NCBI GenBank assembly: GCA_016235455.1
Contig: JACRKZ010000070.1
Location: 1 to 54,745 of the forward strand
DNA length: 54,745 bases
Origin: Armatimonadota bacterium
GTDB lineage: Bacteria > Armatimonadota > UBA10988
Direction of reading: 5' to 3'
Below the pieces are notes generated by a model. That model saw nothing but the letters and a program-made list of their open reading frames with translations, ran no database searches and was not told the DNA's origin. The number at the start of each line of letters is the position of its first letter. Positions within the stretch are counted from its first letter, which is position 1. The translations under genes and the position numbers were made by a program. Of this stretch, positions 30,728 through 45,918 are shown piece after piece.

Positions 30728-31295
30728 GCTCTGGCGGCTTGCCGCGCTCGCGCTGTTGCTGGCGGGCTGCGGCGAGTACCGCCATGAGCGGCTGTCGCTG
30801 GTACCCGTGGGCCAGGTGAGCGCGACCGAGTTGCGCTTCTTGCGTCGCGATCTGGCGGCGTTCTACGGCGTGCGCTGCGCGATCCGCACCGAGCGCCTGG
30901 CCGTGCCGACCGGCGCGGCCCAGGTGGACGCGGACGCGCTCCTCAACGCGCTGGAAGCCCTGCCCACGGAGCGGGGCGAACGGCTGCTGGCCGTGTGTTC
31001 GGGCGACGGCGGGCAGCCAGGCACAAGCTTCGTGTTCGGCCTGGCGCGCAGGCGGGGTCGCTGCGGCGTGATCTTCACCGGTCGCCTGCGCACCGACGTG
31101 GACCAGCGCGGCTACGAGCGGCGGCTGGCCATCGAGGCGCACCACGAGTTGGGGCACGTCTATGGCCTGGGCCATTGCCCCAACGACGGTTGCGCGATGT
31201 GCTTTTCACCTGGCCTGATCGACGTCGACGCCAAACGCCCCAGCTACTGCGAGCACTGCCGCGAGTTGCTGGAGCGCTGGCGTCGAGAACGCTAG
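30693..31295 (+). CDS. Archaemetzincin-like zinc metalloprotease, predicted lipoprotein
   Basis: FVFGLA, HELGHVYGLGHC, CAM, D.K..YC..C; lipobox LLAGC. The start codon is uncertain. Confidence 0.8.
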   Translation: MTWWRCAIVSRRLWRLAALALLLAGCGEYRHERLSLVPVGQVSATELRFLRRDLAAFYGVRCAIRTERLAVPTGAAQVDADALLNALEALPTERGERLLAVCSGDGGQPGTSFVFGLARRRGRCGVIFTGRLRTDVDQRGYERRLAIEAHHELGHVYGLGHCPNDGCAMCFSPGLIDVDAKRPSYCEHCRELLERWRRER

Positions 31296-32572
31296 ATGGT
31301 CGGCATCGTGTAGGGATCGCGGTAGGCGTAGGTCAGGCGCTTGGCGGCGTCGTCATCACCCACGATGGTCTCCTTGGCGGGATCCCAGGTGAGGGGCCGG
31401 CCCACGCGCATGGCGATGTTGCCCAGGTGGCAGACCGTGGCCGAGCGGTGGCCGATGGCCACGTCGCAGATGGGGTTCTTCCGCGACTTGATGCAGTTGA
31501 GCCAGTCGCCGTGGTGACTGGTGCTGGCGTAGAGCTTGACGTCGGCATCGGTCCAGGTGGTGGTGGCCAGTTCGGCCGGCGTCGTCTCGAGCTTGCCGCG
31601 GTTCACGAAGATCGTACCGTTCTCGCCGACGAAGGTGATGCCACCGCGGTTCTTGTTCCCGCAGCGCACGACCGTGCCGTCGGCATAGGTGTAGGTGACG
31701 TTCGATTCCTGGGGCACTTCCCAGGCCTGCCCGTCCTTGTAGGTGGGCGTGCCCTCGATCTTGACCGGGCCGCTGTCGTCCATGCCCAGCGCCCACTGCA
31801 CGATGTCGAGGTGGTGGGCGCCCCAATTGGTCATCTGACCGCCCGAGAAGGCCCAGAAGAAGCGGAAGTTGTAGTGCACGTGGCGCGGGTTGTAGGGCCT
31901 GAACGGCGCCGGGCCGACCCACATGTCGTAGTTGAGCTCGGCCGGCACCGGCGCGGCAGGCTCGTCCTTGCCGCCGTAGTTCACGCCCGGAATGCCGACC
32001 AGGATCTCTTTGATCTTGCCGATCTTCTTGTTGCGGATAAGCTCACAGGCCAGCCGGAACTTGGCATCCGAGCGCTGCTGACTGCCGGTCTGAACCACGC
32101 GGCCGTACTTGCGCGCGGCGTTGACCATGGCGCGACCTTCGGCCACCGTAAGCGTCAGCGGCTTCTCGCAGTAGACGTCCTTGCCGGCCATGCAGGCGTG
32201 GATGGTGGCCAGCGCGTGCCAGTGGTCGGGCGTGCTGATCAGCACGGCGTCCACGTCCTTGCGGTCGAGCAGCCGGCGGTAGTCCTGGTAGACTTCGGCC
32301 TTGCCCCCAGCCTTCTCCACCGCTGCCGCCCCGTCGCCCGCGCGCTTCAGGTCGACATCCGCCACGGCCACGATGTCCTTGAGGTGCGGACCCATGTTGC
32401 CGCGGCCCTGGCCGCCACAGCCGATGACCCCGAAGCGCAGCCGCTCCGAAGCCGGCGCGGTACCTGCCTGGCCAAAGGCAGCGCGAGTGCCCAAGGCACC
32501 GCTGGTGATGAGAGTCGGCCACGCGCTCAGGGCGGCGGCACGCTTGAGGAAGTCGCGACGTGTGGTCTCCAT
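31292..32572 (-). CDS. Tat-exported Gfo/Idh/MocA oxidoreductase
   Basis: Tat motif TRRDFLK; IGCGGQG; TPDHWH; CEKP; GSQQRS; NWGAHHLD. Confidence 0.93.
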   Translation of the reverse strand: METTRRDFLKRAAALSAWPTLITSGALGTRAAFGQAGTAPASERLRFGVIGCGGQGRGNMGPHLKDIVAVADVDLKRAGDGAAAVEKAGGKAEVYQDYRRLLDRKDVDAVLISTPDHWHALATIHACMAGKDVYCEKPLTLTVAEGRAMVNAARKYGRVVQTGSQQRSDAKFRLACELIRNKKIGKIKEILVGIPGVNYGGKDEPAAPVPAELNYDMWVGPAPFRPYNPRHVHYNFRFFWAFSGGQMTNWGAHHLDIVQWALGMDDSGPVKIEGTPTYKDGQAWEVPQESNVTYTYADGTVVRCGNKNRGGITFVGENGTIFVNRGKLETTPAELATTTWTDADVKLYASTSHHGDWLNCIKSRKNPICDVAIGHRSATVCHLGNIAMRVGRPLTWDPAKETIVGDDDAAKRLTYAYRDPYTMPTI

Positions 32573-32713: not shown

Positions 32714-33163
32714 ATGAAGCGGTTCGAGTTCCCACTGGAGAGCGTGCTGCGGTTGCGCCGGTTCGCCGAGGCCGAAGCCCGGCAGGCGCTGACCGAGGCG
32801 CTGACGGCCCGCAACCAGGCCGAGGCCGAGCTGCTCCGCACGCGCGAGCAGTCGGCGCGCCAGATGCGGCAGCTCACCGACGAACTCCCGACTCTCGCCG
32901 CGACCGAAGTGGTGGCTATCTGGCAGGAACTCGACCACCTGGAAGAACTGGCCCTAAAGCAAGCGGCGCACCTGGCCGATTGTGAAGCTGAAGTGCAGCG
33001 GCGGACCGAAGCCTACATCGAAGCGCAGCAGGAGCGCAAACCCCTGGAGCGCCTCAAGGAAGAGATGCACCGCGAGTATCTTCACGAGCAGGATTTGGCC
33101 GAGCAGGCGTTCAACGACGAACTGGCTGTCATCGGTCACTCCCGGAAGGGAGGAGAGGCATGA
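32714..33163 (+). CDS. fliJ: Flagellar export chaperone FliJ
   Basis: MKRFEFPLESVLRLR, coiled coil, ERK.LERLKE...EQ...DE. Confidence 0.9.
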   Translation: MKRFEFPLESVLRLRRFAEAEARQALTEALTARNQAEAELLRTREQSARQMRQLTDELPTLAATEVVAIWQELDHLEELALKQAAHLADCEAEVQRRTEAYIEAQQERKPLERLKEEMHREYLHEQDLAEQAFNDELAVIGHSRKGGEA

Positions 33164-36100
33164 TACCGCCGAGTCTGGGCCAGGCCATGGCCCGGATTGA
33201 GACCATCGAAGGGTTGCTGGACCGCTTGTCGGAAGCTACCCCCTCTAACCAGAGCGCGAACGGCACCTCGTTTGAGGCCATGCTGTCGGCGCAGCTCAAC
33301 GGCAGCACTGGCGCCACCGGCTCGGCCGCGGCCGCCGCGATGCAGTCGGCTGCGGCGCAAGGCACGGCTCTGGGACTGGGCGGCCAGAATGGCATGGCCC
33401 AGTCGGCTCTCTCCAAGGCACTCAGCGGTCTGGCCACGACCAGCGCGTCTGCCACCGGTGGCGATCTGGACCTGACTCCCGTGCCCGCCAACATCAAGCA
33501 GTTGGCCCTGGCCGCGGCGCAGCGCTACGGCGTCGACCCCGCCCTCGTGCTCTCGGTCATCAACACCGAATCCGACTTCAACCCCAACTGCACCTCGAGC
33601 GCGGGGGCCATGGGCCTCATGCAGCTCATGCCCGAGAACTGCACCGAGTATGCGGTCAGCAACCCGTACGACGCCGCCGAGAACATCGACGGCGGCGTGC
33701 GCCAGTTGCGCGACATGCTGACCAAGTACAACGGCGACGCGCGGCTGGCCTTGGCCGCCTACAACGCCGGGCCGACCGCGGTCAAGCGCTACGACGGCAT
33801 CCCGCCGTACAAAGAGACGCAGAACTACGTGCGGAAGGTGCTCGGCAGCCTGGCCTACTACCACGGCCAGGTGACTGGTCAGACCGTCGCACCGATGGCC
33901 GACGCCACGCTCGGCTCGAGCGCCACGCTGGCCGGCCTGGTGGGCACCGGCCTCAACGCCACGGGCGCCACGCCTGGCGTGTCGCCCCAACGCCGCATCG
34001 CCGCCGCCAGGCCTGAAGGCCAACCCGCCGCCGGCTCACCGGTCCCCGCCACCCCCATGGTGCCGCTCACGCCCATGGTGCAGACAACCCCCTTGCCGAC
34101 CACCGTTGCGCCGGTCACGACGCAGACTCCGGCGGGCAGCGCCACGGCGCCGCTCGGCCTCGGCGGCCTGACCACGCGCGCCGCCACGGCACCGCAGCCG
34201 CTGGCCACTGAGTCCGTCTCACTGCCGCCGTCGGCCAGTCAGGTGCAGCGAGCCGCTACGCCGGCCCCGGTCCAGCCCGAGTTGACGCCGCTGGCCGAAC
34301 CGACGCCCGGCAGCGCCGCGGCCCCCATGGCGCAGATGACGCCGATGGCGCCCGCGATGGCGATGCCCGCGCCGCCCCTGGCCTCGGAAACGAACGGATC
34401 GAACCTGCCTGCGCCAAGCGCGGCGGCCGCGTCGGTCATCACGCCGACGGCTTCCGCGGGCGGCGGCCAGACAGCCAGCACCAGTGACGCCTTCGCCACG
34501 GCCGTGACGGCCCCGGCCATGGTCCCGCTCGCCAGCGACGCGGCGCAGTCGCCGGCATGGTCCTCAGGCAGCGGGCAGCCCGCCGTGCGGTTCGTGGCCG
34601 ACGCGGGCTCGGCCACCGCGACGGCCGCCACCACGGCCGGAGCCACAGCCGACGCGGCCGCCACGGCGACGGCGAACGTCCCGGCGCCAACGCGGCTCCT
34701 CGATACAGCCGCCGACCAGCCGATTATGACCATGGATCTGGAGGTGGTCGGTGCGGCTCAGCCGCAGGCCCTGGGCCAGCCGCAGGCTCAGCCCGCCACC
34801 GTGGCCGACGACATGGCCCGCTGGCTGGCTGGCGGCGCGCAGCCAACGGCCACACCCGCGCCGACGGTGGCTCCTGCCGAGCCGTCGCCGAGCCAGGCCC
34901 AACCCATTCCCGTATCGCAGCCGCAGCCGCAGCCGCAGCCGGTGAGCATGGCGTCCGTTACGGTCGACACGGCGGTGCCCGGCGTACCGACCGCGCCGCC
35001 AGCGAGCGAGCTGTCGCCGTCCGCCGATCGGCCGGTGGAGGAAGCCCTCGACGCGAGCCAGCCGGCACGCCAGGCGGCCCCTCCGCGCCACGTCGAAGTC
35101 GGCCAGGCCGCGTCGTCGACGGCCGGCACGAGTGCGACGACCGTCCAGCCCACCCCATCTCGCACGAGCACGGCCACCGCAACGGCCGTGCCGTCGGACC
35201 CGGCGCCGGCGCCGGAGAGCATGACGGCGCACGTGGCGGAGACCTTTGGCGCTCGGGCCAGCGCCTCCGGGGCCATGCCGACCGGCGAGTTGGTGGGGCG
35301 CGTCGCGCGTCACCTGGCGCCCACGGCGACGACGCCCGCCGGACAGAGCGCCGAGGCCACGCTGGCCCAGATCGCCCAGACCGTCAGCGGCGTGGTGCGC
35401 GAGGTGCAGACCTTGCCGACCGACGAGCAGCCGGCTGAGGCCGAAGACGCCCAAGCGTCGGCGCGCACCGAGCAGGCCAGCCGGCCGCGGGCGCTTGCGC
35501 CCGACGTGCTGGCCGAGCGGCAGCGGCCCAGTGCCGCCGCCGAGCAGGCGTTGGCCACCAACGCGCCGGTGACCGCGGCGGTTGCCGCGGCGCAGCCGGG
35601 CAGCACCGGCGGCCAGTCGAGCCACAGCGGTCAGCGTCAGGTGAGCGCCGAGCCCACTCGCGCCGTGAGCGCGACGGATGGCACCAACGTGCCCACCTTC
35701 TCGCTGGCCGAGGCCTCGCGCACGGCGGCTCCGGCACAGGTCACGCAGGGCGGGACGGAAGTCGCCGCGCGCGACCTGAGCGACATGACCGCGCAGTTGG
35801 CCGGTCGCGCCAAGCTGGTCCGCACGCCGGGCCATGACGAGTTCACCGTCCGGCTCGAACTGCCCGAAGTGGGCCAGGTGGCCGTGCGCATCGTCCGCGA
35901 TGGCGGCGGCGTGTCGGTCAACCTGCAGACCGGCAGCGACAGCCTGCGCCGGGCCCTCCAGGACCAGATGCCGCACCTGGAGTCGGCGCTGCGCGAGCAG
36001 GGCGTGCAGATGAGCAGTTTCTCCGCGGGCGACCGCGGTGACCAGCGCCAGGACGCCTACCAGGCGTGGTTCGGCCAGCAGGCCGGCCAGGGCCAGCAGC

Positions 36101-36252
36101 AGCGGCGTGGCGAAGCGATGTACCAGCCCGGCACCAACGCCGGTGTGAACGTCGAGCCGACGGTGGACGCCGTGGGCCCGGCACAGTCGGTCGGCGGACA
36201 GCCGGTCCGCGACGATCTTGGTTCCGACCGCGGCTTCAGCCGCTGGGCGTAA
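33160..36252 (+). CDS. fliK: Fusion of soluble lytic transglycosylase (SLT/GH23) and flagellar hook-length control protein FliK
   Basis: SLT motifs TES.FNP, GAMGLMQLMP, AAYNAG, PPYKETQNYV; about 650 aa of Ala/Pro/Thr linker; FliK_C-like VRLELPEVGQVAVRI...LRRAL...L...L.EQG; located between fliJ and flgD. Confidence 0.85.
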   Translation: MIPPSLGQAMARIETIEGLLDRLSEATPSNQSANGTSFEAMLSAQLNGSTGATGSAAAAAMQSAAAQGTALGLGGQNGMAQSALSKALSGLATTSASATGGDLDLTPVPANIKQLALAAAQRYGVDPALVLSVINTESDFNPNCTSSAGAMGLMQLMPENCTEYAVSNPYDAAENIDGGVRQLRDMLTKYNGDARLALAAYNAGPTAVKRYDGIPPYKETQNYVRKVLGSLAYYHGQVTGQTVAPMADATLGSSATLAGLVGTGLNATGATPGVSPQRRIAAARPEGQPAAGSPVPATPMVPLTPMVQTTPLPTTVAPVTTQTPAGSATAPLGLGGLTTRAATAPQPLATESVSLPPSASQVQRAATPAPVQPELTPLAEPTPGSAAAPMAQMTPMAPAMAMPAPPLASETNGSNLPAPSAAAASVITPTASAGGGQTASTSDAFATAVTAPAMVPLASDAAQSPAWSSGSGQPAVRFVADAGSATATAATTAGATADAAATATANVPAPTRLLDTAADQPIMTMDLEVVGAAQPQALGQPQAQPATVADDMARWLAGGAQPTATPAPTVAPAEPSPSQAQPIPVSQPQPQPQPVSMASVTVDTAVPGVPTAPPASELSPSADRPVEEALDASQPARQAAPPRHVEVGQAASSTAGTSATTVQPTPSRTSTATATAVPSDPAPAPESMTAHVAETFGARASASGAMPTGELVGRVARHLAPTATTPAGQSAEATLAQIAQTVSGVVREVQTLPTDEQPAEAEDAQASARTEQASRPRALAPDVLAERQRPSAAAEQALATNAPVTAAVAAAQPGSTGGQSSHSGQRQVSAEPTRAVSATDGTNVPTFSLAEASRTAAPAQVTQGGTEVAARDLSDMTAQLAGRAKLVRTPGHDEFTVRLELPEVGQVAVRIVRDGGGVSVNLQTGSDSLRRALQDQMPHLESALREQGVQMSSFSAGDRGDQRQDAYQAWFGQQAGQGQQQRRGEAMYQPGTNAGVNVEPTVDAVGPAQSVGGQPVRDDLGSDRGFSRWA

Positions 36253-36269
36253 CGGAAAGGAGCAGAACC

Positions 36270-36671
36270 ATGGCGAGCATCAGCAGCGTCACCAACTATG
36301 ACCCCAGTCTGGGGCGAACCGGCGGCACGGCGAAGAAGGATCTGGACTCGGACACCTTCTTGCAGCTGCTTGTCGCGCAGCTGCGGTACCAGGACCCCAT
36401 GTCGGGGATGGACCAGCAGGCCTTCATGCAGCAGTTGTCCACCATGTCGAGCATGCAGCAGCAGCAGAGCATCAACGCCAATCTGTCGGACATGGTCAAG
36501 CAGAACCAGGTCACCCAAGCAACAGGCATGATTGGCCGTACAGTTAAGGGCACAGTGGACGATAAGGAGATAGAAGGGAAGGTCACCGCGGTGACCATCT
36601 CCAGCGACAAGGTAATGCTGAAGGTGGGCACGGACAGCGTGCCCTACAGCTCGGTCTATGAGGTAACCTAG
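36270..36671 (+). CDS. flgD: Flagellar hook cap FlgD
   Basis: LD.DTFLQLLVAQLRYQDP; QA.GMIGR.V; AAAGGAG RBS. Confidence 0.95.
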   Translation: MASISSVTNYDPSLGRTGGTAKKDLDSDTFLQLLVAQLRYQDPMSGMDQQAFMQQLSTMSSMQQQQSINANLSDMVKQNQVTQATGMIGRTVKGTVDDKEIEGKVTAVTISSDKVMLKVGTDSVPYSSVYEVT

Positions 36672-36697: not shown

Positions 36698-37087
36698 ATG
36701 CGACTGGACAGGATAGACAAAGCCGGAGCCATTGCCGGCGCGACCGAGGCGCAAGCACCCCGCAAGACGGGTGCGGTCGCCTTTGAGGAAGCGCTGCGCA
36801 AGGCGACCGGCAGCGAGTCGACCACAGCCGCCCCAGGCCTCGATTTCTCCAAGCACGCCTTGCAGCGGCTGGAGCAGCGGGGCATCAAGCTCGATGACCA
36901 GTTGATGGAGCGCTTGACCGGCGCGGTGGACCGCGCCGCGACGAAGGGCTCGCGCACAACGCTGGTGCTGGTCGACCAGACCGCCTTCGTGGTTGGTGTC
37001 CCCAACCGCACGGTGGTGACGGTCGCCGACCAGGAGAACCTGCGCGAGAAGGTCTTCACCAACATCGACAGCATGGTCATCGCCTGA
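36698..37087 (+). CDS. Flagellar operon protein TIGR02530 family
   Basis: FSKHA.QRL..RGI, A..KG...LV, V.V.NRTVVT, VFTNIDS; typical position between flgD and flgE. Confidence 0.92.
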   Translation: MRLDRIDKAGAIAGATEAQAPRKTGAVAFEEALRKATGSESTTAAPGLDFSKHALQRLEQRGIKLDDQLMERLTGAVDRAATKGSRTTLVLVDQTAFVVGVPNRTVVTVADQENLREKVFTNIDSMVIA

Positions 37088-37107: not shown

Positions 37108-37235
37108 GCGCCCTGACGGGCGCGTCGGAACACAGTGATCAGCACTGGGGCTGGCCCTCTCGGAGGAAGCCCCCTCTGGCAACGCGGACCATGAGGTCCG
37201 TGGGTGGGAGTTCGTCCCATCCGAAACGGGAGGCA
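37108..37235 (+). ncRNA. Candidate structured cis-regulatory leader upstream of flgE
   Basis: Five consecutive hairpins, including GGGGCT-GGC-CCTC-TCG-GAGG-A-AGCCCC, GCGGACC/GGTCCGT and GGGTGGGA/TCCCATCC. Confidence 0.45.
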
Positions 37236-37238
37236 ACC

Positions 37239-38483
37239 ATGAGCCGGTTGTTTTCGACGGCCATCTCGAGCATGCAGACCCACTCCTTGGGCATCGACGT
37301 GGCAGGCAACAACATCGCCAACCTGAACACCACGGGCTACAAGGGTGTGCGCGCCACCTTCGAAACACTCTTCAGCCAGACACTGCGCCAGGCGCAAGCC
37401 CCGCAGAACGGCCTGGCCGGCAACGATCCCATGCAGGTGGGTGCCGGCGTGGGTCTGGCCAACACCATGACCAGCTTCGCCCGCGGCAGCCTGGAGCACA
37501 CGGGCGAGAACCTCGACCTGGCCATCGCCGGCCGTGGTTTCTTCGTTCTCTCCGGCCCCGGCGGCGAAGAGGCCTACACGCGTGACGGCGCCATGACGCT
37601 GGACGCCAACGGCCAGTTGACGCACGCCAGCTCCGGCCTGTCGGTGCAAGGCTTGTTGGCCGACCCGGCCACCAACCTGATCCCGGCCAACGCGCTGCCC
37701 ACCAACATCGTCATCCCGCCGGGCCTGACGCTGAACGCGCAGGGCACCGAGACGGTCAACATCGCGGGCAACCTCAACGCCAGCGCGGCTGTCGGCGATT
37801 CGACCGACATGCAGTACCGGTACTACGACAGCCTGGGCGTGGCGCATGTCATGACCGTCAGCTTCACCAAGACCGGCGCGGGTGCCTGGGGCTTCAGCGG
37901 CTATATCGATGTGCCGGCCAACAACGTGGGCAGCGGCACCCTGACCTTCTCTGCCACCGGCGATGTCAGCGCGGTGACGGGCAACACGTTCACCGTCACC
38001 TCGGCCAGCACGGGTGTCACCGCGGGCGCCACCGCTCCGCAGTCCATCCTGGCCAACCTGCAGCAGATGACGCAGTTCTCCTCCACGGCCGAGGTGCAGG
38101 CGACCAACCAGGACGGCTTCCCCCCGGGCGCGCTGAACGACGTCACCATCGACACGTCGGGCAACATCCAGGCGGTGTTCTCCAACGGCCAGTCGCGCCT
38201 CATCGCGCGCATGGCCGTGGCCAACTTCGCCAACCTCAACGGCCTGGTGCGGTCGGGCGACAACCTGTTCATCCAGTCGTCCAACACCGGTTCGCCGCAG
38301 ATCGTCAGCGCCGGCAGCGGCGGCACGGGTCAGATCCAGTCGCAGGCGTTGGAGCGCTCCAACGTGGACCTGGCCAGCGAACTGACCACGCTGCTCGTGC
38401 TGCAGCGCGGCTACTCGGCCGCCACGCGCATGGTGTCCACCGCGGACGACATGCTGCAGGAGGCGCTCAACCTCAAGCGCTAA
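37239..38483 (+). CDS. flgE: Flagellar hook protein FlgE
   Basis: GNNIANLNTTGYK, DLAI.G.GFF, YTRDG, YDSLG..H, LE.SNVDL..E; GGGAGG RBS. Confidence 0.96.
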   Translation: MSRLFSTAISSMQTHSLGIDVAGNNIANLNTTGYKGVRATFETLFSQTLRQAQAPQNGLAGNDPMQVGAGVGLANTMTSFARGSLEHTGENLDLAIAGRGFFVLSGPGGEEAYTRDGAMTLDANGQLTHASSGLSVQGLLADPATNLIPANALPTNIVIPPGLTLNAQGTETVNIAGNLNASAAVGDSTDMQYRYYDSLGVAHVMTVSFTKTGAGAWGFSGYIDVPANNVGSGTLTFSATGDVSAVTGNTFTVTSASTGVTAGATAPQSILANLQQMTQFSSTAEVQATNQDGFPPGALNDVTIDTSGNIQAVFSNGQSRLIARMAVANFANLNGLVRSGDNLFIQSSNTGSPQIVSAGSGGTGQIQSQALERSNVDLASELTTLLVLQRGYSAATRMVSTADDMLQEALNLKR

Positions 38484-38580: not shown

Positions 38581-38590
38581 AGGATGCCCA

Positions 38591-38839
38591 ATGGTCAAGG
38601 TACGCCGGCTCGACGGCTCGCGGTTCGTGCTCAATGCCGAACTCATCGAGACCCTGGAAGCCACGCCCGATACGGTGCTGCGCCTGACCAATGGCAAGGT
38701 CTATGTGGTCAAGGAGGGCGTCGACGAGGTGCTGGCCAGCGTCATCGCCTACAAGCGAGCGATGTTCACCCACCTGTTTGGCAACCCCGCCGAAGGCCCC
38801 GAGTGGCCGCCGGCGGATCCGGCCGCCGCGGAGTCGTGA
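38591..38839 (+). CDS. flbD: Flagellar protein FlbD/SwrD
   Basis: M..V.RLDG..FVLNAELIE..EATPDT...LTNG..YVV.E. Confidence 0.95.
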   Translation: MVKVRRLDGSRFVLNAELIETLEATPDTVLRLTNGKVYVVKEGVDEVLASVIAYKRAMFTHLFGNPAEGPEWPPADPAAAES

Positions 38840-39873
38840 TGCACACCATGCGCACAACCAGGTACTGGCTCGCGGCCCAGCTGACGCTGCTCGCCGCCGG
38901 CGCTGGCTTGGCGCTCGCACCCGAACCCGAGCAGGTGGCCGACCGCTTGCGTTTGCTCTGCGCCAGCCAGTCGCATCTCCTGGTCAGGCAGGCCGGTTCC
39001 TCGCCGCGTGGCCGCGCCATTCCGCTGGTCGTGGCATCGACGACGCCCAACGAACTGGCGGGCCAACTGCGCCTGCTCGTGCTCGCCCGCCAGCATGGCG
39101 ATGAGCCAGTACCCGCGCAGTCCGCCCTGCTGTGGCTCTCCGAGCAAGGCCAGCAGACGGCGGCGTTCCGACGCGTGGCGGTGATCCTGGTGCCGACCCT
39201 CAACGTCGATGGCGCGGTGCGCGGCACCCGCGAAAACGCGGCCGGGGTGGACCTCAACCGCGACTGGGTCGACCAGTCGCAGCCCGAGACCCAACTGGCG
39301 CTGCGCATCGCCGAGCGCTACCAGCCGCACGCCGTGGTCGACCTGCACACCTTTGCCGGCCGCACTCACGATGACGGCACCCGCGCCGATGCCGACTGGG
39401 TGGAATGCCACCGCACCGGCTCGGCGGAGCTGGACCGGCTCTCCTATGACCTTGGCAACGACCTGGTCGGCGAGTTGCGCGGACTGGGTGAGAACCTGGA
39501 CCTGCTGCAGAGCAGTGACGCCACGCGTCTGGCACATCGCTACTTCGCCGAGCGGCTGCACATGCTGTCCTGGCTGTTCGAGGTCGGCGACCACCGCACA
39601 GACCCCGAAGCCGTGCTGTTGTCTCGCTTGGTAACCATGCTCAGTGACCGCTACGACGACCTCAAGCCGCGCCTGGACGCGATGCGAGGCCTGCGCACCT
39701 GGCACCAGGCCGAGCCCCTGGTCGCGGTGGACGCGCCGGCCGCCGCGCCCTTGCCGGCGGCACCCCGGCCGCGCCGGCCGGCCGCCTTGCTGGGCTGGTA
39801 TGCCGCCGGCCTGGGCTTGCTGCTGGCCGCGCGTGGACGCATTGATGCCGAAGGTGACGATGATGTCAGCTGA
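38839..39873 (+). CDS. M14 family zinc carboxypeptidase, exported and C-terminally membrane anchored
   Basis: HGDE (HxxE), P.LN.DG, REN..GVDLNRDW, VDLH, FEV; N-terminal signal; Pro/Ala linker then a C-terminal TM; TGATG coupling to flbD. Confidence 0.85.
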   Translation: MHTMRTTRYWLAAQLTLLAAGAGLALAPEPEQVADRLRLLCASQSHLLVRQAGSSPRGRAIPLVVASTTPNELAGQLRLLVLARQHGDEPVPAQSALLWLSEQGQQTAAFRRVAVILVPTLNVDGAVRGTRENAAGVDLNRDWVDQSQPETQLALRIAERYQPHAVVDLHTFAGRTHDDGTRADADWVECHRTGSAELDRLSYDLGNDLVGELRGLGENLDLLQSSDATRLAHRYFAERLHMLSWLFEVGDHRTDPEAVLLSRLVTMLSDRYDDLKPRLDAMRGLRTWHQAEPLVAVDAPAAAPLPAAPRPRRPAALLGWYAAGLGLLLAARGRIDAEGDDDVS

Positions 39874-40630
39874 CACCAAGAAGCTGGTCTGGCTCGGCCT
39901 GGCGGGTTACCTGTGCGGCACAGCCGCCATGGCGGTGGCCTGGACCGTGGCGGCCCGACCGCATGGCCTGTTCCATCTGCCCGCCCTGCTCTCGGTGTTC
40001 CTGGCCGGCGCGGCCTTCACGCTCGTCGGCGCCAGGTCGGCCGACTGGCAGGTGCTGCGGTCCCGACCAGAAGCCGGAGGCGAGACCGAGGCCAAAGCGC
40101 GCCTGATCGCCTTGGCGGCCGTCGCTCGCGCCGAAGGCGCCCGCGGCTTGGAGCGCCAACTGCCCCACGCCACGCAGCCGCTCGAGCGGCAGGGGCTGAA
40201 CCTGCTGGTCGACGGCTGCGGGTCCGCCGAGTTGCAGGCGGCGCTGCAGGCGGCGGCCGACGCCGCCGGCGATGCCGACCACGGCCCGGCCCGGGTCTGG
40301 CGTCTGCTCAGCTCGTCGTTCGTCAATGCGGGCATCGTCGTCACGCTGATCGGCATGGTGCGCACGCTGCTGGGCAACGGGCCGGAAGGGCCGCCGCCCG
40401 AGGCTTTGGCCGGGGCGCTCACCGCGGCCGTCTACGGGATTGTGGTGGGGTTGGGCGTGCTCCATCCCCGCGTGGGCCGTGCCCGCGTGGCTGCTCGGGC
40501 AGCCGCGGCGCAACGGCGAGTCTGGATCGAGGGCCTGGTAGCCATCGCCGGCGGCATCCATCCGCGGCGACTGGCTGACCGCTGGAACATGGATTCCAGC
40601 GAGGCGCCACTATTGAGGCGCGTGGCCTGA
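39860..40630 (+). CDS. motA: Divergent MotA-like stator protein
   Basis: AR.EG...LE, GL.LLVDG, TLIGMV, AL...YG, EGL.AI..G..PR; four TMs; precedes fliL. Confidence 0.75.
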   Translation: MMSADTKKLVWLGLAGYLCGTAAMAVAWTVAARPHGLFHLPALLSVFLAGAAFTLVGARSADWQVLRSRPEAGGETEAKARLIALAAVARAEGARGLERQLPHATQPLERQGLNLLVDGCGSAELQAALQAAADAAGDADHGPARVWRLLSSSFVNAGIVVTLIGMVRTLLGNGPEGPPPEALAGALTAAVYGIVVGLGVLHPRVGRARVAARAAAAQRRVWIEGLVAIAGGIHPRRLADRWNMDSSEAPLLRRVA

Positions 40631-44077: not shown

Positions 44078-44863
44078 ATGCCCCCGGACCTGATGCACAT
44101 CACCGCGCAGTTGCTGACGGCCTTCTTGCTGCTGTTCGGCCGGGTCCTGGGTATGTTCGCCGCCTTTCCGATGTTCGGTGAGCGCAATGTGCCTTGGCAG
44201 GCGCGCATCGGCATCGCCTTCTTCATGACACTGCTGCTGCTGCCCACCACCACGGCGCATCAGCCGCTGCCCGCCACCGATCTGGTCATGCTCGGTCTCG
44301 GCTTCATCCGTGAACTGCTGGTCGGCCTGTCCATTGCCTACCTGGCGCGACTGCTGTTCGGCGCGTTCCAGTTCGCGGTGAATGCGCTCGACTTCCAGTC
44401 GGGCCTGAGCTTTGTGCAGGTCGTCAACCCGGGCTCCGACACCAGCCTGAGCGTCATGGGCCAGTTCCTCAACACGCTCATGATGCTCATGTTCCTCGAG
44501 CTCGATGGCCATCACCTGATCATCCGCGCGCTGGGCGCATCGCTGCGCGCGGCACCGTTGGGCTACGCCGCGCCGCCACTGCCCACCGCCGAGCTGGTGG
44601 CGCGCATGTTCAGTTCATTCGTGCAGTTCGGCCTGCAGTTGGTCATGCCGGCGGTCCTGCTGCTCACGCTGGTGGACATTGCCATGGGCATCGTCGGCCG
44701 CGTCGTGCCGCAGCTCAATGTGTTCATGGTGGCGCTACCCATCAAGATCATGGTCATGATCGTCACGCTCAGCCTCACTCTGCCGGTCATGTCCGACATC
44801 ATGACCCGCCTGCTCGGCATCATGGGCGAAGGCCTCAATGCCTACGTGGGGATGATGGGCTAA
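44078..44863 (+). CDS. fliR: Flagellar export gate FliR
   Basis: ELLVG, D.Q.GL, DGHH..I, R.VPQLNVF...PIK. Confidence 0.96.
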   Translation: MPPDLMHITAQLLTAFLLLFGRVLGMFAAFPMFGERNVPWQARIGIAFFMTLLLLPTTTAHQPLPATDLVMLGLGFIRELLVGLSIAYLARLLFGAFQFAVNALDFQSGLSFVQVVNPGSDTSLSVMGQFLNTLMMLMFLELDGHHLIIRALGASLRAAPLGYAAPPLPTAELVARMFSSFVQFGLQLVMPAVLLLTLVDIAMGIVGRVVPQLNVFMVALPIKIMVMIVTLSLTLPVMSDIMTRLLGIMGEGLNAYVGMMG

Positions 44864-45918
44864 TGGGCTTCCTGGACAACAAGACCGAGGCCGCAACCCC
44901 CAAACGGCGCGGCGATGCGCGCAAGAAGGGCCAGGTCGCGCGCAGCCGCGATATCGTCTCCGTGGTGGTGCTGATCGCCGGTTTCTGCGCCATCCGCTCC
45001 GCCGGCCCAGCCATCTGGTCGGCGTTCCGTGGCGATCTGCTGTGGTTCCTCGACCAGGCCATGTCCGGCGACCGCATGGACGCCATGACCTCCGCGCCCG
45101 TGCGCATCGGACACACGCTGGCCGTGGCCATGGCGCCGCTGAGCGTGGCGGTCATGCTCGGCGCACTGATCAGCAATGTGGCGCAGACGGGACCGATGCT
45201 GCTCTCGGACCCGCTCAAGATCGACTTCAACAAACTCAACCCGGTCACGGGCCTCAAGCGGGTCTTCTCCCAGCAGTCCATCGCCGAACTGGCCAAATCC
45301 GGCGCCAAGGTCGGCGTCGTCACCTGGGTCGTCTACAAGTGGTTCGTCGTCAAGTACCCCGATGTGCTGGCCACCTCGCAGATGGACATCACGCAGTCGG
45401 CGCAGTTCGCCAGTGCGCTGGTCGTGGCCCTGTTCTGGAAGACGATGAACGTGCTCATCGTCATCGCCCTCATCGACTTCGCCTGGCAGCGGTACTCGTT
45501 CGAGAACTCGCTCAAGATGAGCCGAGACGAGCTCAAGGACGAGATCAAGCAGATGGACGGCAACCCCGAGATCAAGGGCGCCATCCGCCGCCGGCAGCGC
45601 GAGATCGGGCGCAACCGCATGATCGCCGCGGTGCGTGACGCCGACGTGGTCATCACCAACCCCACCCATTACGCCGTGGCCCTCATGTACAAGCCCGAGA
45701 CCATGGATGCGCCCGTGGTTGTCGCGCTGGGCCAGCGCCTCACCGCGCTGCGCATCAAGGAAGAGGCCAAGGAGCACGGCGTACCCATCGTCGAGAACAA
45801 GCCGCTGGCTCGCGCGCTGTTCGCGGCCTGCAACGTGGGCTCGCTGGTGCCGGCCGAGCTGTACGCCGCCGTGGCCCAGGTGCTGGCCTACGTCTACCGC
45901 CTGGCCGGCAAGCGATAG
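44863..45918 (+). CDS. flhB: Flagellar export switch FlhB
   Basis: KTE.AT.KR...AR.KGQV..S, GNPEIK, autocleavage motif NPTHYAVAL, PLARAL. Confidence 0.98.
   Translation: MGFLDNKTEAATPKRRGDARKKGQVARSRDIVSVVVLIAGFCAIRSAGPAIWSAFRGDLLWFLDQAMSGDRMDAMTSAPVRIGHTLAVAMAPLSVAVMLGALISNVAQTGPMLLSDPLKIDFNKLNPVTGLKRVFSQQSIAELAKSGAKVGVVTWVVYKWFVVKYPDVLATSQMDITQSAQFASALVVALFWKTMNVLIVIALIDFAWQRYSFENSLKMSRDELKDEIKQMDGNPEIKGAIRRRQREIGRNRMIAAVRDADVVITNPTHYAVALMYKPETMDAPVVVALGQRLTALRIKEEAKEHGVPIVENKPLARALFAACNVGSLVPAELYAAVAQVLAYVYRLAGKR

Follow-up and report, generated by a model that had tools for sequence, protein, structure and literature searches.

How does a flagellated bacterium whose FlgJ consists of a single domain bring a wall cutter to the tip of its growing rod, and is a dedicated enzyme needed there at all? 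Both matters are debated, and a 2026 paper on Salmonella FlgJ, together with the work on CwlQ, questions the classical picture. The question is raised here by a stretch of DNA from an Armatimonadota bacterium, the 54,745 nucleotides of contig JACRKZ010000070.1 (assembly GCA_016235455.1, positions 1 to 54,745, forward strand), which we call the window. In it, one genuine gene joins a peptidoglycan-cutting enzyme with the flagellar hook-length ruler, FliK. The wall cutter's exit from the cell is probably through the growing flagellum, as part of the ruler.

The fused gene

The gene is a single unbroken frame from ATG to TGA, 1030 codons for 1030 amino acids, at 33160-36252 on the plus strand. 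An earlier prediction, made from the letters of the window and a list of their open reading frames, had described it as one uninterrupted frame, and the open reading frame listing and the translation agree with this. Its parts are as follows.

33160..36252 (+), gene of the SLT-FliK fusion: 1030 codons and a stop; the genome's sole Flg_hook match
33160..33309 (+), N-terminal export-type region, residues 1-50: AlphaFold2 helices, a conserved F column, no hydrophobic leader
33487..33879 (+), SLT/GH23 lytic transglycosylase domain, residues 110-240: Pfam, AlphaFold2, Foldseek, conserved residues
33880..35763 (+), disordered linker rich in Ala, Pro, Thr and Ser, residues 241-868, presumed to be the ruler: composition, AlphaFold2
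35764..36084 (+), FliK C-terminal (T3S4-type) domain, residues ~869-975: Pfam, PDB matches, AlphaFold2
36085..36252 (+), C-terminal tail ending W-A, then the stop: WA in 15 of 16 fused proteins

Just 5' of the ATG stands a strong Shine-Dalgarno-like GGAAGGGAGGAG, and the ATG itself overlaps the TGA of fliJ as ATGA. The N-terminus, MIPxxLG..ARI..I.GLLD.L, can be aligned with those of five other fused proteins (see below), and the W-A ending is common to 15/16 of the fused proteins in our alignment. A FliJ domain upstream and FlgD downstream (Pfam) place the gene in the fliJ-fliK-flgD slot, as had been predicted.

By profile, motifs and predicted fold, residues 110-240 are a lytic transglycosylase of the GH23/SLT family. 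The Pfam SLT profile (PF01464) matches residues 116-222 with an E-value of 1e-26 and 93.2 bits (cut-off 21.3). The catalytic glutamate is E137, in NTESDF, where it forms the E137-S138 pair; its codon is nt 33568-33570. Further motifs are GLMQLMP from residue 152, AYNAG from 200 and PPYKETQNY from 215. The intact domain that had been read from the sequence, with its catalytic codon at 33568, its GLMQ and its AYNAG, is thus recovered in every particular. Among PDB sequence matches, the E137-S138 pair aligns with the ES of the Neisseria-type transglycosylase entry 5mpq, and the domain finds its best match in 9b45 gp41, the tape-measure protein of a phage (E 1e-18), with bacterial Slt and LtgA ranking behind it. 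The best NCBIfam match of the enzyme part is the Borrelia flagellar-assembly transglycosylase BB0259 (E 1.9e-22, over the domain only and far below the cut-off of that family). AlphaFold2, run on an alignment of 16 fused proteins, models residues 110-240 with predicted local distance difference test scores (pLDDT) of 85-96, and Foldseek matches the model to Slt, LtgA, MltC, MltE and MltF at probability 1.00, with E-values down to 4.5e-7. All 16 of the 16 fused proteins keep E137, S138, G149-A150, G152, Q155-L156-M157-P158, Y201-N202-A203-G204 and P215-P216. Such invariance of catalytic and core residues argues that the enzyme is under constraint.

The other end of the protein carries the FliK C-terminal domain that had been claimed for it: Pfam Flg_hook/FliK (PF02120) matches residues 889-964 with E 3.4e-15 and 56.1 bits, above the cut-off of 29.8. 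PDB sequence matches include 2rrl, the C-domain of Salmonella FliK (E 6e-4), and 5cuk, a 'ruler protein' (E 0.015), and the NCBIfam profile for the YscP needle-length determinant matches the C-terminus with E 3e-5, below its own cut-off. AlphaFold2 gives residues 870-975 an alpha/beta fold with pLDDT 70-88. A Pfam profile search of the genome assembly finds no Flg_hook match other than that of the fused gene.

Between the two domains lie ~630 amino acids of low complexity (about 650 had been estimated), with 23% Ala, 14% Pro, 12% Thr and 9% Ser over residues 245-860; for residues 242-868 AlphaFold2 gives no secondary structure and a pLDDT below 50. Among the 16 fused proteins the linker cannot be aligned and its length is greatly variable. 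The original prediction had added that so long a ruler may imply an unusually long rod-hook. This idea finds no support and we have dropped it, since fused relatives range from 476 to 1030 amino acids in total length and linker length is therefore not conserved.

Very long FliK frames are also found in other relatives, of 1468 (G028:C28, locus L113), 1828 (G229:C1, L117) and 1628 (G094:C9, L118) amino acids; at L113 and L117 the SLT gene stands upstream as a gene of its own. Within the phylum, ruler lengths differ by a factor of more than four.

The N-terminus and the route of export

AlphaFold2 places two helices before the enzyme, at residues 4-25 (pLDDT 72-78) and 38-49. The second covers FEAML (F38-L42, residues 38-42, nt 33271-33285), which follows the N-terminus MIPPSLGQAMA and is an FxxxL resembling the gate recognition motif of flagellar export substrates. 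For that motif Evans et al. in 2013 reportedly gave the consensus FxxxPhi. At the FEAML column of the alignment 14/16 fused proteins have F. Of 50 relatives, fused or stand-alone, 48 have an FxxxPhi upstream of the SLT domain, where shuffled sequences would give 20.5; these relatives are not independent of one another. No second FxxxPhi is conserved after the SLT domain among the aligned fused proteins.

The absence of a Sec signal, which had also been claimed, is borne out by hydropathy, the measure used here in place of a dedicated signal-peptide predictor. The maximum Kyte-Doolittle mean over 15 residues within the first 70 amino acids of the fused protein is 0.79, and no Sec-type leader is seen there; by the same measure the other SLT protein of the genome, which has a lipoprotein-like start, reaches 2.43.

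Early export substrates of Salmonella have a hydrophobic extreme N-terminus and, downstream of this signal, a gate recognition motif that docks on FlhB_C; it lies at residues 36-40 in FlgD and 39-43 in FlgE (Bryant et al. 2022, PMC8983047). In Bacillus subtilis, CwlQ (YjbJ) is described as an N-terminal domain followed by SLT, with neither a Sec nor a Tat signal; it belongs to the flagellar regulon and is SigD-dependent, and its secretion needs FliF and residues 2-35 (Sanchez, Dunn and Kearns, bioRxiv 10.1101/2021.01.13.426625). By the position, form and conservation of FEAML, the N-terminal region resembles that of an early (rod/hook-class) substrate of flagellar export, which would be its predicted function. 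A complex prediction of residues 1-110 with FlhB 213-351 gave scores of 0.18 and 0.22, against a mark of 0.32, and hence no verdict.

What became of an N-terminal signal of FliK's own? As far as the sequence can tell, none is recognisable any longer in the fused protein. Since the fused gene holds the only FliK_C of the assembly, and neither a conserved second motif nor, near the junction, an internal start with a Shine-Dalgarno sequence comes after the SLT domain, it follows that if FliK is exported at all, the SLT domain goes first.

Authenticity and recurrence

Fusions in metagenome-assembled contigs deserve suspicion, and we looked for the same frame in other data. Logan contigs (assembled sequence from the larger-share runs, in which rare variants may be lost) cover the gene free of insertions or deletions in three runs, all of one study, over 33000-34908, 33616-35553 and 34049-36400, and these pieces bridge both the junction of SLT with linker and that of linker with FliK_C. 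Short pieces of a diverged relative occur in a fourth run, which belongs to another study; among them, a contig of depth 2.66 lacks one base at 35193.

Five other genomes of the same family (G001-G005) were compared, of which G001, 80% complete, was uninformative. Two genomes of the family, each of another genus, have both SLT and FliK_C in one frame, of 841 amino acids with the N-terminal motif in G004 and of 540 amino acids in G005. In G002 the SLT and FliK halves are cut off at two contig ends, and a contig end truncates the FliK_C frame of G003. No separate SLT gene was found before fliK in G002, G003, G004 or G005, and the order fliK, PF12611, flgE, M14, fliL is kept in all four. The contigs of the three runs and the intact fused frames of G004 and G005 together confirm the frame, the comparison of genomes being the stronger evidence.

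How widespread is the architecture? We searched 1.84 billion cluster representatives exhaustively with phmmer and obtained 53,439 hits at E <= 0.001, almost all of them to the SLT domain. Pfam was then run on 30 of the 149 non-self proteins among the best 150 of these hits, including all 27 of at least 450 amino acids. At least 17 further cluster representatives combine SLT at the N-terminus with Flg_hook at the C-terminus (E <= 0.01), and eight of the 17 are over the Flg_hook cut-off (P0019, P0020, P0021, P0022, P0025, P0026, P0041 and P0062). Over the aligned columns of the tree described below, P0020 is identical to the protein of G004 and P0025 to that of G005. A further case of SLT with FliK is P0002, a 'hypothetical protein' of 1008 amino acids from JGI (the Joint Genome Institute), with a sub-threshold Flg_hook match. 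A word-indexed search returned 17 hits for the whole protein, the query included, the others being matches to the SLT domain only, with P0002 among them; for the C-terminal 181 residues it returned the query alone. The nearest clusters in the ESM Atlas were FliK-like hypothetical proteins at 0.76-0.77, below trust level, and no SLT+FliK cluster was listed.

Judged by these searches, the architecture is recurrent in uncultured bacteria but not frequent. It might have been already common and described. The fusion does recur, in the 17 or more cluster representatives and in the genomes of two relatives; literature searches on FliK with lytic transglycosylase found no published description of an SLT-FliK fusion. 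For an SLT enzyme delivered through flagellar export, CwlQ is a precedent; the fusion to FliK is new in print as far as we found.

Origin of the fusion

Where did the enzyme come from? A scan of 401 genomes of the phylum with Pfam Flg_hook found FliK in 253, in 222 of them over the cut-off. From these we took 40 FliK loci of about 20 families, chosen before their SLT status was known; three turned out to be cut by contig ends. A separate SLT gene of ~190-300 codons (stop to stop) lies directly upstream of fliK, on the same strand, in 19 of the 37 informative loci, all of other families, and one locus (G139) is fused. Among 14 loci taken earlier, for the most part because their FliK frames are long, six had a separate SLT neighbour and eight had none. 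At three loci, L146 (G085), L150 (G271) and L158 (G245), a single in-frame stop stands between the SLT and FliK frames.

The stand-alone SLTs, of ~200 amino acids, have no hydrophobic leader and begin with a helix of the same type (e.g. ...RIxEIxxRF...) followed by FxxxL/M. Because they share the helix, the motif and the upstream slot, residues 1-240 of the window's protein are a former SLT gene with its leader and the rest is a former fliK. The fusion, on this comparison, joined two neighbouring genes.

Did this happen once? A quick IQ-TREE tree was built from the SLT domain and the FliK C-terminal columns of 54 rows. The window's protein, those of G002, G004 and G005 and metagenomic proteins, 18 fused rows in all, form one group (Shimodaira-Hasegawa-like approximate likelihood ratio support, SH-aLRT, 97). 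G139 nests among unfused genomes of its own family, f24, and P0002 stands elsewhere on a long branch. The approximately unbiased (AU) test rejects a single clade of the 20 fused rows with p 0.009, for a group that was chosen once the tree was known. A single origin of all fused forms is thus rejected, and the fusion arose at least twice. In the main clade the fused state has been kept, by these comparisons, through deep divergence and in at least three genera: the highest identity of the window's protein to another fused row is 52% over the 253 kept SLT+FliK_C columns, and over the whole protein it shares 22-35% identity with the 15 other fused proteins.

The fused frame of G139 (locus L149) has 709 amino acids and an acidic Ser-rich linker. 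Six further f24 genomes (L173-L178), one of them in G139's own genus, all have SLT and FliK as separate, overlapping neighbours in different frames (6/6). From this sequence comparison, either G139 acquired its fusion independently or its assembly is in error.

Beyond the phylum the comparison was less sensitive. A tblastn search of 80 loci with the window's flagellar proteins and our own hidden Markov model (HMM) of FliK_C were both too insensitive outside the family; the HMM found the domain in no locus of Melainabacteria or Clostridia. With Pfam, run on five of those genomes, and blastn, FliK was located in two Gastranaerophilales metagenome-assembled genomes (MAGs) and in Hathewaya limosa, in each case not adjoining SLT; matches covering residues 3-229 are present in a Hathewaya (Clostridia) genome. 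By SLT identity the nearest named records are 'uncultured Armatimonadia bacterium' MAGs, which the tree places together with a genome of the same phylum; in the two Armatimonadia MAGs SLT is a gene of its own, and their FliK frames run off contig starts. At the Gastranaerophilales (Melainabacteria) MAG loci L038, L049, L063 and L080, a homologous SLT gene lies directly 5' of FlgE/rod-like genes (tblastn). This gene order suggests that SLTs of this type are linked to flagella outside the window's phylum as well, although there, by the Pfam and blastn results, not beside fliK.

Wall enzymes and FlgJ elsewhere in the genome

The assembly, in 185 contigs, is 93% complete. It has one FlgJ-like frame, of ~131 amino acids with the rod-binding domain only, adjoining flgH and flgI. 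No Glucosaminidase domain was found by profile search of the assembly, so the check whether this FlgJ lacks a hydrolase comes out positive. The presence of flgH and flgI (L and P rings) means that the rod is that of a diderm and must cross the wall beneath the outer membrane. Only two SLT domains occur in the genome, the fused one and the one with the hydrophobic, lipoprotein-like leader. Species that combine a single-domain FlgJ with an independent hydrolase have been described as the PleA and SltF class (PMC13584718), and by its gene content our genome matches this class.

Proposed function

Taken together, these observations lead us to favour, with some confidence, the following view: the gene is a fusion kept by selection, in which a CwlQ-like flagellar transglycosylase and a FliK ruler would be exported as one protein through the type III apparatus of the flagellum, both to cut the wall and to measure the hook. 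The fused protein would be an early (rod/hook-class) type III substrate, recognised via the N-terminal helix and FEAML that it inherited from the SLT gene. It would be threaded unfolded, N-terminus first, through the channel of the nascent rod or hook. At the distal end the SLT domain would refold and cut glycan strands locally, while the linker, still in the channel, would serve as a tether. The C-terminal FliK domain would then reach FlhB and flip export specificity once the length had been attained. The fused enzyme would in this way stand in for the hydrolase domain that is missing from the organism's single-domain FlgJ. The original prediction had spoken of a ruler that carries its own drill, and the core of that image is partly supported: there is a predicted wall-cutting enzyme on the ruler, and FlgJ lacks a hydrolase. 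Export, muralytic activity and cutting at the very place where the rod passes through the peptidoglycan are inferred. The corollary on hook length is unsupported.

One may go a step further, into what we regard as a long shot. The ruler might be a leash, with the linker in the channel confining the cutting to its own reach and to one export event. The refolded N-domain, unable to re-enter the channel and perhaps binding peptidoglycan or the cap, would then be a fixed outer reference, and the fusion would have recurred by selection for this coupling. If this were true, one molecule would couple wall penetration with length measurement.

Several considerations weigh against the view that the fused protein is exported to cut the wall and measure the hook. 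FliK classically acts at the hook stage, when the rod is already through the wall; FliK is exported at the rod stage as well. A folded helical domain of 130 residues must unfold and refold, for which the hydrolase domain of FlgJ and CwlQ are the only precedents. In 17 of the 37 informative loci there is no SLT in the upstream sequence examined, so the coupling is not universal. Nine of the 17 fused cluster representatives are below the Flg_hook cut-off (P0038, P0047, P0048, P0052, P0135, P0149, P0077, P0086 and P0098), and since a fused query was used for the search, its counts say nothing on the architecture's share. The three runs that tile the gene come from one study and may include the source sample, which makes their independent support weak, and at 93% completeness a second hydrolase or a second FliK may have been missed. 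The hydrolase activity of FlgJ in Salmonella is described as enhancing and not required (PMC13584718), so that a dedicated 'drill' may be dispensable. CwlQ, too, is reported as dispensable for flagellar assembly (bioRxiv 10.1101/2021.01.13.426625).

Alternative explanations

The fusion could be one of convenience. One stop would have been lost between co-exported neighbours, and the SLT enzyme would act as a stand-alone one would, perhaps after proteolysis, without benefit from the tether or any special function at the rod tip. The three unfused loci with a single in-frame stop make fusion a one-step event, the linker is unconstrained in length and sequence, and unfused neighbours are the common state. 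A neutral accident is harder to reconcile with a fused state that persists over the divergence given above (52% best identity over 253 columns, 22-35% over the whole protein), with catalytic residues kept in at least three genera, with more than one origin (tree and AU test) and with the loss of any recognisable N-terminal signal of FliK's own. We consider it unlikely, if worth keeping in mind.

Another possibility is that the enzyme does later or different remodelling of the wall, making room for stators or the P-ring or allowing a high flagellar density, as CwlQ does in swarming. The export of FliK is best known at the hook stage, and CwlQ is secreted by the flagellum and yet dispensable for assembly (bioRxiv 10.1101/2021.01.13.426625). 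Set against this is the genome search: it found no other flagellum-linked hydrolase of glycan strands, the FlgJ being rod-binding only, with no Glucosaminidase domain. The M14 peptidase encoded in the operon (see below) could take on part of the wall remodelling. We think later remodelling an improbable role for the fused enzyme.

Might the one frame yield two proteins? An internal start would give a stand-alone FliK, with the full-length form as a minor product, and the long frame does hold 28 Met codons. Of its internal ATG and GTG starts, one alone has an upstream GGAG, a weak one at residue 688 and far from the junction; no start preceded by a Shine-Dalgarno sequence was found near the SLT junction, and no Met downstream of the SLT domain is conserved among the aligned fused proteins. 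As no FxxxPhi is conserved there either, the product of an internal start would lack the usual export signals, and we think such a product very unlikely.

An assembly or sequencing artefact (a lost stop or a frameshift) is effectively excluded and hardly needs consideration: the contig comes from a metagenome-derived assembly of 185 contigs, and a 1-base deletion is seen at 35193 in the contig of depth 2.66 from a diverged relative, but the contigs of three runs agree without insertions or deletions and the fused frame is intact in G004, in G005 and in many independent metagenomic proteins.

Relation to known systems

The closest counterpart of residues 1-240, and of the stand-alone SLTs, is CwlQ. 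They share its layout of a small non-Sec N-terminal domain followed by SLT with a catalytic Glu, the N-termini having been compared by layout only. The difference is that CwlQ is a separate protein of 244 amino acids, with its own SigD promoter and unfused to FliK; its gene presumably lies away from fliK in B. subtilis. With Salmonella FliK the fused protein has in common the T3S4-type C-terminal domain, a disordered central ruler, the fliJ-flgD slot and a single copy. Salmonella FliK, in contrast, has 405 amino acids (PMC8983047) rather than the 1030 found here, where the N-terminal 240 residues are predicted to be an enzyme with an export-type leader. The bifunctional FlgJ of beta- and gamma-proteobacteria also unites an assembly protein with a hydrolase, but there it is a C-terminal glucosaminidase on the rod cap, whereas here it is an N-terminal GH23 transglycosylase on the ruler.

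SltF is reportedly exported in a Sec-dependent manner and recruited by binding to FlgJ. SltF of Rhodobacter sphaeroides, PleA of Caulobacter and BB0259 of Borrelia resemble our case as SLT-family enzymes of flagellar assembly in species with a single-domain FlgJ (PMC13584718); unlike it, they are separate proteins.

Outside flagella the nearest likeness is to phage tape-measure proteins: extended, length-determining proteins that travel a narrow tube and carry a lytic transglycosylase or other peptidoglycan hydrolase motif. A related paper is that on Tmp of TM4 (PMC1796659). These are viral tail rulers, which act from outside in infection, and the likeness is one of logic and of a shared SLT domain, not of overall homology. 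Enterococcal phages offer a related tape-measure case (PMC10194240).

Gene neighbourhood

The flagellar genes that bear on the fused gene are these.

32714..33163 (+), fliJ (~149 amino acids): Pfam FliJ, E 1.6e-11, on the C-terminal part of a long frame; likely start ATG 32714
36270..36671 (+), flgD (hook cap): Pfam FlgD and FlgD_tudor; likely start ATG 36270, with GGAAAGGAG upstream
36698..37087 (+), PF12611 'putative flagellar' protein: Pfam
37191..38483 (+), flgE (hook): Pfam
44863..45918 (+), flhB, the export-gate component acted on by FliK_C: Pfam Bac_export_2, E 1.4e-120

As listed among the open reading frames, flgD begins at GTG 36066 (36066-36671, plus strand) and overlaps fliK by 187 nt; the ATG at 36270 is the more likely start. 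FlhB has NPTH at residues 266-269, invariant in 16/16 aligned FlhB sequences.

Between flgE and fliL lies a gene like those of M14 zinc carboxypeptidases (38584-39873, plus strand; Pfam E 1.7e-9), with a start resembling a signal peptide from an internal Met and with a hydrophobic C-terminal stretch. The order flgE-M14-fliL is found by tblastn in G002, G003, G004 and G005 also. From its family and position, this gene could be a second flagellum-linked wall-active enzyme. Also between flgE and fliL, at the usual place of motA/motB, is a frame of 328 codons (39644-40630, plus strand) with hydrophobic segments and no Pfam match; because the M14 frame ends within it, the true start probably lies further inside. 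After this membrane-protein frame the operon continues with fliL, two FliN-domain genes, fliP, fliQ, fliR and flhB. Upstream of the flagellar genes, on the other strand, is a GFO/IDH/MocA oxidoreductase gene (31292-32572), with an F-type ATP synthase operon further upstream.

What the fusion may mean

The locus puts a predicted CwlQ-like transglycosylase, covalently, on the one protein that is known to pass again and again through the structure as it grows. In about half of the flagellated relatives sampled, SLT and fliK stay side by side. By a 'Rosetta-stone' argument, the fusion would suggest that small SLTs without a signal are flagellar export substrates in the rod/hook programme. The parallel with phage tape-measure proteins that carry transglycosylase domains would be a functional one. 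The fused gene is also a concrete construct for tests of secretion and of activity.

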